Source: a virus
Lineage: Duplodnaviria > Heunggongvirae > Uroviricota > Caudoviricetes
Length of the DNA stretch: 4,535 nucleotides
Virus record (IMG/VR): IMGVR_UViG_2667527584_000004
Direction: 5' to 3' (one strand)
The notes beneath the pieces are model-generated. The model searched no databases and was not told where the DNA came from. It saw nothing but the letters and a program-made list of their open reading frames with translations. The position numbers were made by a program, and so were the translations under genes. Below are positions 1 through 2,474 of the stretch, one piece after another. Within the stretch, counting starts at the first letter, position 1. Every line of letters starts with the position of its first letter.

Positions 1-325
1 CGGCAAGAGTCAGTAATTGTCCCTGGTCTTCCTGCAGAATAGTCAGGCGACCACCGCGATTGACATACATCGGCGTTTCGGTGGTGTCTTCTTCGGAAAT
101 TTTCCCGCGGTTAGTCGGACGAACATATGAGAGTTTGTGTTTTATTTTCACACGGTTCTCATCAAACGGTTCGATTTCCAGGTTGAGCGAGACCTTACCT
201 TTGGTTTTCGTGTTCATCACACCGGAAGCGACTTCACTGAGAACTGCGCCGATTTTGGTTTCAAATACGCCGCCGTCCAGCTCCCCGATAAATTCCTGCA
301 CGTTGGTACTGCGTTCGCTAGCCAT
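1..325 (-). CDS. Hypothetical prophage early-left protein; N-terminal ~108 codons only, gene continues past the window start
   Basis: Minus-strand reading frame open to the window edge, so absent from the ORF track. ATG at 325-323 with GAGGAG (338-333) 7 nt upstream. Translation begins MASERSTNVQEFIGELDGGVFETKIGAVLSEVASGVMNTKTKGKVSLNLEIEPFDENRVKIKH. Family not recognised. Confidence 0.7.
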   Translation of the reverse strand, partial: MASERSTNVQEFIGELDGGVFETKIGAVLSEVASGVMNTKTKGKVSLNLEIEPFDENRVKIKHKLSYVRPTNRGKISEEDTTETPMYVNRGGRLTILQEDQGQLLTLA

Positions 326-373
326 TTTGCTGCTCCTCATCATATCGACCCTGCAAGGTCGGTTGGTTTCTCC

Positions 374-462
374 ACAAAACAGAGAAGAACACCTGCGGTG
401 GCAGCCGCCCGGGTGGATTGGGTTATGAGCCCGTCGTCCGGTGATGCTCTTCTCTGTTTTGT
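374..462. repeat. 15-bp perfect inverted repeat (ACAAAACAGAGAAGA at 374-388, TCTTCTCTGTTTTGT at 448-462) around a 59-nt GC-rich spacer
   Basis: Read directly from the sequence; the arms are exact reverse complements. Confidence 0.8.
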
Positions 463-508
463 AAAAAGAGCGGTACCAGCCGGAAGCAAGGGTACAAGCT
501 GGTACCGC
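461..508 (-). terminator. Candidate intrinsic terminator for leftward transcription
   Basis: 11-bp perfect GC-rich stem (470-480 GCGGTACCAGC pairs with 498-508 GCTGGTACCGC) with a 17-nt loop. On the minus strand the stem is followed by TCTTTTT (469-463). No T-tract follows it on the plus strand. The loop is long for a canonical terminator. Confidence 0.45.
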
Positions 509-793
509 CAGGACTACACACAGCATAAAGTTGTGGTGCCGGGTGCCTCCCGGTGCCTGGCGAAGGTTGCACACCAGGCGGGTGGGTATCCACAGAAGGT
601 CGACTGTCAGCCTCAACCTTAACCCGCGTGCGCTGAGCCGCATTCACCACAACGCTAAGGATTCTCTCTGGTTGAAAATACTTAGCTGTTATGTGCCTGC
701 TTTTAGCCACATCAGGCGAGGTGGGCCTGGTTATTCCCCAACAACAAGGATTCGGCTAATCTGGATGACTCTGTTCTTAGAGGGGATAATTAA

Positions 794-1306
794 ATGGGAG
801 CGATTTATGTTAAACGTTTGATTCTGTCGGTAGCACTGATAATACCGATAGCATCCAATGCTTCTGATGCTTTGAACCAGCCGAGCAGTAGTCTAAATGA
901 TGGTGTTGAGACTTTTTTTATTTCCTGCTTTGATATGCCTCAGGAAACAACTACTGATATGGACGCTTGTCAGAGAGTTCAGTTAGCTCAGGTTAGTTGG
1001 GTTAAGAATAAGTATTCGGTGGCCGCCCTGAATCGTTTGAAACAAGACAACAAGGATGATCCACAGCGTCTGCAGGAATTAACTGCTTCTTTTAACGCGG
1101 AAAGTGAAGCTTGGACAGAATTAATTGAGAAAGCGTCAAAGTCCGTCCAGGTTGATTATGCAGGAGGAACTATAGCTGGCACTGCAGTTGCATCACGTCA
1201 AATTGGTCTTCTGGAATTACAATCCCACGATATCTGGGAGCACTGGCTACGATTCGAGGACTCAACTCCTCCTCTTTTGCCAGAACCAAAGTTCAAATCT
1301 GAGTAA
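794..1306 (+). CDS. Secreted/periplasmic protein with Sec signal peptide; tentatively DUF1311 (LprI lysozyme-inhibitor-like) family; prophage moron
   Basis: 170-aa ORF. ATG at 794 with GAGGGG 9-14 nt upstream. N-terminus MGAIYVKRLILSVALIIPIASNA then SDA has the n-region, hydrophobic core and AXA cleavage site of a signal peptide. Double stop TAATAA, then a terminator. GC content clearly lower than flanks. Family assignment rests on a remembered motif pattern (Cys pair near N-terminus, AW...YAGG segment). Confidence 0.8.
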   Translation: MGAIYVKRLILSVALIIPIASNASDALNQPSSSLNDGVETFFISCFDMPQETTTDMDACQRVQLAQVSWVKNKYSVAALNRLKQDNKDDPQRLQELTASFNAESEAWTELIEKASKSVQVDYAGGTIAGTAVASRQIGLLELQSHDIWEHWLRFEDSTPPLLPEPKFKSE

Positions 1307-1319
1307 TAAGTCATCCAGA

Positions 1320-1332
1320 TTGTTAAAGAGCG
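1320..1332 (-). promoter_or_regulatory. boxA-like motif CGCTCTTTAACAA on the minus strand, about 100 nt downstream of the PL-like promoter
   Basis: Reverse complement of plus 1320-1332. Matches the lambda/rrn boxA core CGCTCTT(T)A and 12 of 13 positions of the rrn boxA as I recall it (TGCTCTTTAACAA). Functional status unknown. Confidence 0.3.
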
Positions 1333-1333
1333 A

Positions 1334-1360
1334 AGCGTCCTATAGGGCGCTTTTTTGTTG
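1334..1360 (+). terminator. Rho-independent terminator of the secreted-protein gene
   Basis: Stem AGCGTCC (1334-1340) / GGGCGCT (1345-1351) with one G-U pair, loop TATA, followed by TTTTTTGTTG, 28 nt after the stop codon. Confidence 0.7.
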
Positions 1361-1441
1361 CTAACGAATCATCCTGGACTTCATATGCCCCAGGCGGCTA
1401 CTTCGTGGGCGTCCTGCCTGTTTGTTGTTTCTCTTGGGTAC

Positions 1442-1469
1442 ATTATGTATCTCAAAGGTACATTGTCAA
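1442..1469 (-). promoter_or_regulatory. PL-like leftward promoter
   Basis: Minus strand: -35 TTGACA (1469-1464), 16-nt spacer, -10 CATAAT (1447-1442). An operator overlaps the spacer. Confidence 0.6.
1446..1462. promoter_or_regulatory. OL-type operator TGTACCTTTGAGATACA (one mismatch from TGTAC-N7-GTACA)
   Basis: Same 17-bp dyad as the two perfect sites between the repressor and cro-like genes. An extra TGTACC half-site lies at 1441-1436 on the minus strand. Confidence 0.5.
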
Positions 1470-1508: not shown

Positions 1509-2183
1509 TTAGGCTTTGATTTTGTATCTTCTTGGTTTTCCTGAGAAAATCACAGTACCAATTATAGAGCAATTACCGTTGATCTTAATGTAAGGCTCAG
1601 GCCAGTTTGGGTTTAACGCTTTGAGATAACGCTGTGTCCCATCTTCTATCAACCTTTTGAAGGTGGTTTCACCTGTATCGTGCATCAATGCAATAACGTC
1701 GTCACCGTGGCAGGCAGGTACTTCAGGATCGACAAAAATCATGTCTCCCGGGCGGTACTCATCAATCATTGAATCACCTATCACCCGCAAGATATAAGTC
1801 ATTTCCCCACAGGGTACAGGGCAGGGATACGTTTCTGCTGTGCTCAAATCAACCTCAGAATATCCAACTTCTTTCCATGCTCCGGCCTGTACCCATGATA
1901 TGACAGGGACTAATGTGATTTGTTTATTAGTGATTGAAACATCAGGTTTTTTTGTGATGTTCGTTGTCTGGTGTTCTTGATCGAGCCATCCGACAGGCAG
2001 GTCGAAACATTTTTCGATGTGTCGTGCCATGCTGTCACCGATATTTTTAGTAGCACCATCTCCCATAAACCTGCTGGTCTGGGTTGGCTCGCGATCAATC
2101 ATAGTGGCAAAGGAAGAATTCCCGCCAACACCATCTCTCAGTTTTCTGGCGTTAGACCGCCGGATGTCATGGATTGTTTTCAT
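1509..2183 (-). CDS. cI: CI-type prophage repressor (N-terminal HTH, C-terminal S24 LexA-like autopeptidase domain)
   Basis: 224 aa. C-terminal half carries the S24 signatures: VQAGAW (Ala-Gly cleavage site), ILRVIGDSM (catalytic Ser), TFKRL (catalytic Lys), and a VDPEV...LKALNPNWP...INGNCSIIG pattern resembling P22 C2 / lambda CI. Divergent from the cro-like gene across an operator region. Confidence 0.92.
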   Translation of the reverse strand: MKTIHDIRRSNARKLRDGVGGNSSFATMIDREPTQTSRFMGDGATKNIGDSMARHIEKCFDLPVGWLDQEHQTTNITKKPDVSITNKQITLVPVISWVQAGAWKEVGYSEVDLSTAETYPCPVPCGEMTYILRVIGDSMIDEYRPGDMIFVDPEVPACHGDDVIALMHDTGETTFKRLIEDGTQRYLKALNPNWPEPYIKINGNCSIIGTVIFSGKPRRYKIKA

Positions 2184-2273: not shown

Positions 2274-2474
2274 ATGAAAGCGTATTGGGACTCTTTAACC
2301 AAAGAACAGCAGGGCGAGTTGGCCGGAAAAGTTGGCTCAACACCTGGCTACTTACGGCTGGTTTTCAATGGCTATAAAAAAGCCAGTTTTGTGCTGGCTA
2401 AAAAACTTGAGCAATGCACGTCAGGTGCAATTACGAAATCTGACTTAAGACCGGATATCTATCCGAAAGATTAG
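2274..2474 (+). CDS. Cro-like HTH regulator (YdaS/Cro family)
   Basis: 66 aa, MKAYWDSLTKEQQGELAGKVGSTPGYLRLVFNGYKKASFVLAKKLEQCTSGAITKSDLRPDIYPKD. GGAGG 11 nt upstream. The in-frame upstream ATG at 2250 lies inside the operator/-10 and is rejected. Pattern matches short YdaS-type Cro analogues. Confidence 0.85.
   Translation: MKAYWDSLTKEQQGELAGKVGSTPGYLRLVFNGYKKASFVLAKKLEQCTSGAITKSDLRPDIYPKD

Follow-up and report, generated by a model that had tools for sequence, protein, structure and literature searches.

A consensus boxA bordering the moron slot of an N-less prophage: a candidate site for host Nus factors alone

How can a temperate phage keep its early-left genes transcribed when an accessory gene (moron) has been inserted backwards between them and their promoter? 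The question is raised by a stretch of Caudoviricetes DNA of 4,535 nucleotides (nt) (IMG/VR record IMGVR_UViG_2667527584_000004), hereafter called the window, in which a 13-nt boxA element lies on the leftward transcript between the leftward promoter PL and a moron that faces this promoter. The window is 99.9% identical to the prophage of E. coli UTI89 and other B2/K1 strains (L001 denotes the complete UTI89 prophage), and constitutes the immunity region of a temperate phage of the SfV/SfIV/e14/CPS-53-like kind. A phage boxA is known as one half of an N-dependent nut site and, to our knowledge, boxA sites outside rRNA that use host Nus factors only are limited to a few cellular targets, namely suhB, the arrays of clustered regularly interspaced short palindromic repeats (CRISPR) and a toxin gene. 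We propose, with a probability of roughly 0.55, that the 13-mer is an rrn-type boxA, a putative NusB/NusE site of high affinity, that would load the host Nus complex alone onto the PL transcript of this N-less, SfV/SfIV/e14-like prophage.

The boxA and the hairpin behind it

The features that carry the argument are the following, where ORF stands for open reading frame.

1442..1469, minus strand: PL-like sigma-70 promoter (TTGACA at 1469-1464, 16-nt spacer, CATAAT at 1447-1442; 11/12 positions match)
1333..1358, plus strand: intrinsic terminator of the convergent moron (stem 1333-1352 with 9 pairs, then T6)
1320..1332, minus strand: boxA, CGCTCTTTAACAA = CGCUCUUUAACAA, read at 1332-1320 with no mismatch
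794..1306, plus strand: moron ORF of 170 amino acids, to which the PL transcript is antisense

The initial annotation had described a near-consensus boxA on the leftward transcript, about 100 nt past a PL-like start. The match to the consensus is exact, and the element sits at about +104 from the predicted PL start near 1435 (the promoter is predicted from sequence only). Bases 2-12 of the 13-mer (GCTCTTTAACA, 1331-1321, minus strand) fit GYTCTTTAANA, the functional boxA consensus of the gamma-proteobacteria (Baniulyte et al. 2017, PMC5725501), at every position, and bases 2-13 are identical to the boxA of E. coli rrnH (12/12 nt). The window contains one consensus match where 0.03 would be expected (200 shuffles). 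For comparison, NusB:NusE binds the rrnG BoxA with a dissociation constant of 5-8 nM and the lambda nut BoxA with one of 80-90 nM (PMC2800207). The fold of the whole leader is no more stable than that of shuffled sequences (z -0.3), and the boxA is therefore not locked into strong local structure. Operator-like ATGTACC repeats, of a kind also present between cI and cro, overlap the PL-like promoter, which is likewise kept in e14, SfV, SfIV and relatives from other genera.

Conservation of the 13-mer, suggested at the outset as a check, was examined in 125 related copies, and 118 of these keep GYTCTTTAANA while the consensus is broken in 7. When viral contigs were scanned with the hairpin sequence alone, 122 copies were recovered, 118 of which continue with NGCTCTTTAACAA or a consensus-compatible variant. 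The copies vary at the base preceding the boxA G (A in 91, C in 30 and T in 4), at the free N position (C to A in 5 copies) and around the element, with eight variants of the hairpin loop, eight of the linker and seven of the 5 nt after boxA; the boxA core itself is nearly as invariant as the hairpin arms. In a Limnobaculum relative (L144, cI 79% identical), the hairpin has another sequence and is separated by a 17-nt spacer, yet the boxA reads TGCTCTTTAACAA. A unit of the same type occurs in viral contig L258 beside a moron only 36% identical to its E. coli counterpart (the 'MTRDD' moron described below), and the 12-mer is identical in both. Two further contigs, L269 and L278, carry the boxA behind a large-loop, non-terminator hairpin, and have another repressor and a small ydfA-like gene upstream. 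The extended boxA TGCTCTTTAACAATCTGG gave 20 matches in viral contigs, with an antisense moron directly downstream in nine; the upstream hairpins among these matches are of two kinds, the terminator type and the large-loop type. Retention of the consensus in 118/125 copies, variation at free positions, association with at least 10 different cargoes and preservation of the 12-mer in the diverged Limnobaculum-type lineage together indicate that the boxA is under purifying selection, in a manner fitting the specificity of NusB/NusE.

The hairpin noticed initially is present, its stem (1352-1333) directly preceding boxA on the minus strand as 1352-1345 AAGCGCCC, loop UAUA and 1340-1333 GGACGCUU. 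Its interpretation as the rrn-type partner of boxA was not supported. On the plus strand the element has the G+C-rich stem, the T run and the location after an ORF that characterize an intrinsic terminator, 27 nt past the stop codon of the moron. The predicted energy is -13.3 kcal/mol on this strand, where T6 follows, against -7.2 kcal/mol on the PL strand, which is weaker by ~6 kcal/mol; here the stem has a C·A mismatch in place of a G·U pair and is followed by boxA rather than by a U tract. The arms GCGCCC/GGACGC, asymmetry included, are unchanged in 124/125 copies, and the diverged Limnobaculum hairpin shows a like asymmetry at another stem position (-14.1 vs -9.7 kcal/mol). Because of these terminator features and the weak PL-strand fold with its conserved mismatch, the hairpin is a moron terminator viewed from behind and probably not an analogue of the rrn boxB. 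Nor is the boxA simply the back side of this terminator, a coincidence that the initial annotation had considered, because the hairpin occurs without boxA in the structural-gene region of L023 and L064 and boxA occurs behind different hairpins (L269 and L278, and L144 and L258 with their own terminator-type hairpin and 17-nt spacer).

No N-like ORF had been seen in the window, and the search of the whole UTI89 prophage extends this result: none was found in the RefSeq annotation, by Pfam analysis of ten early-region proteins or by a six-frame scan for arginine-rich N-terminal motifs, which returned only out-of-frame ORFs within other genes. The sole antiterminator, by annotation and the same Pfam scans, is a Q-type protein (PF03589). 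The absence of a boxA after the cro-like gene also held, as no second consensus boxA was found elsewhere in the window or in the rightward early operon from cro to Q. No boxB was found 3' of boxA; the sequence past boxA and a following TCTGG is specific to the cargo and has no shared local hairpin. Since an N gene, a boxB 3' of boxA and a rightward nut site are all absent, the host-factor-only site suspected initially appears to be the best reading of the locus.

Similar elements were seen elsewhere. A second exact consensus boxA, GCTCTTTAAGA, lies on the late-transcript strand of L001 (31121-31131, plus strand), within the 650 nt that separate the lysis genes from the HNH/terminase genes; with 0.18 matches expected per 44 kb, it may be due to chance. 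The early leaders of the L283 type (six viral contigs), L295, L323 and L328 contain TGCTCTTTAACAATCTGG without an adjacent boxB-like hairpin or an N-like ORF. The L283 type has it after a cI-like repressor and ahead of untranslated sequence in which CTGTTTAGACCCCT occurs, and in the L295 type it precedes an acidic ORF of 123-169 amino acids. Host-only boxA sites may be commoner in phages than one family would suggest.

The moron slot and the PL transcript

At least 10 different cargo sequences, and among them five unrelated moron protein families, follow the hairpin-boxA unit, and the scan of viral contigs with the hairpin alone revealed at least eight unrelated downstream sequences that start after boxA and TCTGG. 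In every cargo type for which ORFs were listed, the largest ORF is on the opposite strand and faces PL, and the boxA units among these types carry 640-900 nt of A+T-rich cargo (39-44% G+C). On this sequence evidence, the boxA is the PL-proximal border of an exchangeable moron slot with opposite-facing genes. The slot, between boxA and the small-RNA module (window 720-1320), is a hot spot for at least five unrelated opposite-strand moron families, as seen at loci L005, L006, L008, L009, L015, L054, L191, L200, L233, L258, L278, L329 and L360. The unit is thereby the marker of a cargo slot that is widespread among prophages of E. coli and Shigella, the serotype-converting phage SfIV being one of them. 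The families are:

Moron family 1: LprI-like putative lipoprotein, UTI89 window
Moron family 2: 144-amino-acid protein, SfIV
Moron family 3: zinc-ribbon protein 'VIAEL...', 155-205 amino acids
Moron family 4: membrane protein 'MTRDD...', 150-172 amino acids, recurring in several phage backgrounds
Moron family 5: 'MDKFDRS...', 167 amino acids

None of the five families has a Pfam match above threshold. The 170-residue moron of the window has a signal-peptide-like N terminus and a weak match to LprI, a lysozyme inhibitor (PF07007, 17.3 bits, below the 22-bit cutoff). In relatives without the hairpin-boxA unit (e14, SfV, prophages of Atlantibacter, Phytobacter, Kluyvera and others), a co-oriented translated ORF begins ~100 nt past the promoter. 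A mechanical table of boxA presence against the orientation of the first ORF of at least 100 amino acids was too noisy to use, with spurious ORFs overlying the small-RNA region.

The moron is bracketed by an inverted repeat.

1298..1321, unstranded: right arm, 24 nt, 79% complementary to 758-781, starting in the last two bases of boxA (AATCTGGATGACTT...)
758..781, unstranded: left arm, AATCTGGATGACTCTGTTCTTAGA, 13 nt upstream of the moron ATG

Repeats of the same kind are present in SfIV (L003, 2258-2277/2934-2953, 20 nt, 75%), in L278 (3728-3749/4367-4388, 22 nt, 82%) and in L360 (3374-3387/4049-4062, 14 nt, 100%), and such repeats bracket every E. coli-type moron cassette examined. The rrn comparison made initially thus gains unexpected support from the long-range inverted repeat, whose 5' arm on the PL transcript lies directly against boxA, but not from the 5' hairpin, which is probably not boxB-like. 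The arms, with the consensus AATCTGGATATCCCCAACAA, vary between cargo types and co-vary with each other, giving predicted duplexes of about -15 to -32 kcal/mol, and a helix formed on the PL transcript would enclose about 520-660 nt. Mean duplex energies of -26.0 vs -24.5 kcal/mol for the two transcript senses, with the window type favouring the moron sense, do not discriminate between them, and neither do the G·U counts. In the Limnobaculum-type unit of L258, where boxA is kept, no inverted repeat was found. The repeats could form a long-range RNA helix, be the ends of a cassette or reflect a shared promoter region. A further direct partial copy, TTGTTGGGGAATAACCAGG, was seen at about 735-753.

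The remaining features of the early region are:

1..324, minus strand: yfdP (5' part), ~1.1 kb past the predicted start and the first translated gene that the PL transcript carries in its own orientation
376..460, minus strand: 85-nt hairpin with an 18-bp outer stem (-39.2 kcal/mol, z -6.4)
461..683, minus strand: STnc100-like structured RNA (RF02076, E 9e-8, 45.4 bits against a gathering score of 47)
1373..1394, minus strand: leader hairpin 1, with a 5-bp stem CCUGG/CCAGG and a 12-nt loop GGCAUAUGAAGU, then the conserved GAUGAUUCG
1509..2183, minus strand: cI-type repressor YmfK (Peptidase_S24), with its own terminator at 1497-1478, just upstream of PL
2274-2474, plus strand: cro-like gene
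Further genes in the window: CII-like YmfL, a DUF4222 gene and an O-like replication gene

The PL transcript of the window thus has no co-oriented annotated gene until yfdP (start at 324), ~1.1 kb downstream, and this stretch consists of moron antisense, the STnc100-like RNA and the long hairpin. The antisense-moron RNA is richer in C than in G (C/G ratios of 1.2-2.1 between 1200 and 760), a composition that favours Rho loading.

Leader hairpin 1 (flanks 1420-1360) shows strong covariation. In alignment A1, 97.8% of cells are paired and four of the five pairs show changes on both sides, 0/500 shuffles reach the observed score, and six different compensated versions of the stem exist across genera. 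With its conserved loop GGCRUAYGAAKN and its conserved flanks, CAGGCAGGACGCCCACGAAGUAGCC on one side and the sequence listed above on the other, it looks like a candidate binding site, and it is present whether or not boxA follows. A pairing by eye of the loop with ACUUUAUGC in the small RNA was dropped, being unsupported by the e14 variant, and unrestricted duplex folding of the leader against the STnc100-like RNA was uninformative.

Within the STnc100-like RNA there is a long-range helix (GUUGUGGUG/CACCACAAC), and its 3' end is formed by a strong intrinsic terminator at 509-461 (stem 509-469, then U5; -23.7 kcal/mol, z -4.4). It is probably made from the PL transcript, because the conserved module does not include a complete promoter for it. 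In E. coli K1, an mEp460-like prophage expresses a related small RNA of 193 nt, 'sRNA-17' (PMC7719688). The 85-nt hairpin, between the small-RNA terminator and the Shine-Dalgarno sequence of yfdP, is kept in SfV, SfIV, Ayreon, cdtI and e14, although the e14 copy stands ahead of xisE and has a different inner part. A RefSeq 'frameshifted hypothetical protein' pseudogene (L001 20340-20650, window 340-650, minus strand) spans the STnc100-like RNA and the long hairpin, and ymfH of e14 is annotated over the same elements; both calls are probably non-coding RNA mistaken for coding sequence. An alternative untranslated PL leader of ~330 nt, with different repressors and no boxA, is found in L004, L127, L128 and L129 (Ayreon, cdtI, mEp460 and Stx2c phages), paired with variant small RNAs that retain the GUUGUGG/CCACAAC helix and the terminator.

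Possible functions of the site

From the sequence, position and conservation of boxA, its modular context and the absence of N, we infer binding of Nus factors, with consequences for Rho or for RNA folding. In a lysogen, the moron would be transcribed rightward and its RNA would end at the hairpin and T6. Upon induction, polymerase arriving from PL would meet the hairpin in its weak orientation, transcribe boxA and then cross ~1.1 kb without a co-oriented ORF before yfdP. The boxA would load NusB/NusE together with NusA, NusG and SuhB without a phage protein, as in rrn operons and CRISPR arrays, and the complex so loaded would resist Rho while it traverses the untranslated RNA; at CRISPR arrays, which are long and untranslated, BoxA by itself suffices to prevent termination by Rho (Stringer et al. 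2020, PMC7665894). The flanking inverted repeat might also have its 5' arm held close to the polymerase by the Nus complex at boxA. Host-only Nus loading would be the most economical mechanism by which early-left transcription could survive a backwards insert.

Several observations weigh against this proposal. Most copies, those of the SfIV type, have a co-oriented ORF of 68 amino acids starting 45 nt after boxA, and the stretch is then not wholly untranslated. Relatives of the cdtI, Ayreon, mEp460 and Stx2c type have a leader with ~600 nt untranslated and no boxA, and the lineage of L237 and L196 (3/125 copies) has a degenerate boxA, CACTTTTGAAC, despite the hairpin and an antisense ORF. The terminator of the STnc100-like RNA is also present in boxA-less relatives and needs other means of being overcome; moreover, we know of no rrn-type complex that defeats intrinsic terminators well. 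Most copies, finally, come from close E. coli prophage kin, and the raw conservation counts overstate the number of independent observations.

The same boxA could serve RNA folding instead. For rrn operons it is proposed that boxA is tethered to the polymerase by Nus factors and SuhB, which would aid formation of the 16S stem (PMC4807359), and by analogy boxA would hold the nascent 5' arm (AAUCUGG...) until it pairs with the 3' arm 520-660 nt later, so that the antisense-moron RNA is looped out and perhaps excised by RNase III. The start of the repeat within the last two bases of boxA (1298-1321/758-781), its equivalents in SfIV, L278 and L360 and the co-variation of arms able to form stable duplexes are in favour of such looping. 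The near-equal stability of the duplex in both senses, with the window type favouring the moron sense, is not, and the repeats could equally be cassette ends at the DNA level or, for the left arm, a shared promoter region; L258, moreover, keeps boxA without the repeat. We consider looping as the main role unlikely. A lambdoid nutL remnant or variant, in which boxA works with an unrecognised phage factor (for example one binding leader hairpin 1) or with the N of another prophage, would account for the presence of TGCTCTTTAACAATCTGG in the canonical nutL of contig L279, where a boxB-like hairpin stands 6 nt on and is followed by a 96-amino-acid N-like ORF with the arginine-rich motif NARERRRIKRENERK. 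The strong covariation and conserved 12-nt loop of hairpin 1 would also suit a binding site, but this hairpin is found in all boxA-less relatives too and is hence no dedicated partner of boxA. With cargo-specific sequence and no conserved hairpin 3' of boxA, no N-like ORF in the prophage, and 12/12 bases retained across lineages with diverged flanks, which an unselected remnant would not achieve, this explanation is improbable.

Control of the suhB type, where a Nus complex at boxA represses translation of the adjacent ORF and promotes Rho termination, here keeping the cargo side of PL quiet, finds its best case in SfIV: the 68-residue ORF has a GAGGAGG Shine-Dalgarno sequence, and its distance from boxA falls inside the 50-nt window of suhB-like targets (PMC5725501). 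Yet in the window type, as in several other cargo types, no co-oriented ORF lies close to boxA, and as boxA is common to the types and the small ORF is not, we give such control very little weight. That boxA is a mere coincidence, as the antisense face of the moron terminator or as functionless hitch-hiking DNA, could be argued from its direct contact with the terminator stem and from the near-identity of most E. coli copies, but is scarcely credible given the small number of matches expected per window, the separate occurrence of hairpin and boxA, the changes of hairpin and spacer and the concentration of substitutions at consensus-free positions.

A combination of roles is conceivable, in which terminator, boxA and inverted repeat form a two-faced insulator built specially for backwards morons: on one strand the unit would terminate the moron RNA, and on the other a high-affinity boxA with the 5' arm of a long-range helix immediately after it, as in rrn, would let Nus factors and SuhB carry early transcription through the insert, with the antisense RNA looped out and possibly excised by RNase III. 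We offer this only tentatively, as a reading that is possible though doubtful. If it held, N-less temperate phages would have borrowed the machinery of rRNA transcription and folding, and the occurrence of consensus boxA followed by CTGG in other phage leaders hints that the design could be widespread.

Should host-only Nus loading at this boxA be correct, host factors alone would suffice for early transcription in a temperate phage, and it would be explained why the downstream recombination and integration genes of an early operon are not silenced when accessory genes enter it in backwards orientation. The locus would also provide a simple system, with one promoter, one boxA, a 0.5-kb insert and complementary arms, in which to address the debated role of Nus factors and SuhB in blocking Rho or in looping RNA.

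Comparison with known systems

The UTI89-prophage site has its position soon after PL and its boxA sequence in common with the lambdoid nutL, with which its boxA probably shares ancestry, having been kept without boxB or N. It departs from the lambdoid nut and N system in three defining features, namely boxB, an N gene and a second nut site. HK022 is likewise an N-less phage with structured RNA just past PL and antitermination that requires no phage protein. However, the HK022 put is a two-stem fold of ~70 nt and the UTI89-type leader combines boxA with a single covarying stem, and alignment of the PL-nun region of HK022 to the leader and to the whole PL-yfdP stretch revealed no meaningful similarity to putL. 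The mEpimmI 'Nus-dependent non-lambdoid' phages possess an N-like Gp17 and nut sites, and are a different group. When the whole window was compared with Rfam (E<=1), STnc100 was the only match apart from two at chance level, with no family on the leader or boxA and no C4/P4-CI RNA. SfV is described as having a P4-like transcription-termination immunity in the region of the STnc100-like RNA. One direct search for literature linking boxA to SfV, e14 or CPS-53-like phages gave nothing but unrelated papers, and such a link is not discussed in the genome papers on SfIV and SfI.

Among the sites that act without N, the 5' untranslated region of suhB and other mRNA boxA sites (PMC5725501) also present a consensus boxA outside rRNA and use Nus factors only, as the UTI89 site would. 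There, a single adjacent gene is the target, its translation being repressed and its termination by Rho promoted, whereas the UTI89-type variants share no adjacent co-oriented gene. The rrn leader, on which the rrnTAC complex forms, has the 12-nt boxA of the UTI89 site, likewise with a hairpin on its 5' side, and after boxA the upstream arm of a long-range complementarity, to which the inverted repeat of the prophage may correspond if it acts as RNA. The rrn hairpin is a large-loop boxB, however, where that of the prophage is a terminator for the other strand, and the prophage site lacks the GU-rich boxC and encloses ~0.5 kb of antisense mRNA rather than rRNA.

The BoxA of CRISPR arrays (PMC7665894), like the UTI89 site, is a consensus boxA in the leader of a long untranslated transcript. 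It acts through host factors only (NusB, NusE, NusA and NusG, plus SuhB) in a proposed block of Rho, the role that we likewise propose for the prophage site. The two differ in context: the UTI89 boxA belongs to a repressor-controlled phage early operon, its untranslated stretch being the antisense of an accessory gene, and is fused to a moron terminator and an inverted repeat. In sequence, position and conservation, the prophage site agrees with the N-independent BoxA class of rrn, CRISPR arrays and suhB. The boxA unit would therefore seem best placed in the host-only BoxA class, for which the moron-slot border of an N-less prophage is a new setting.

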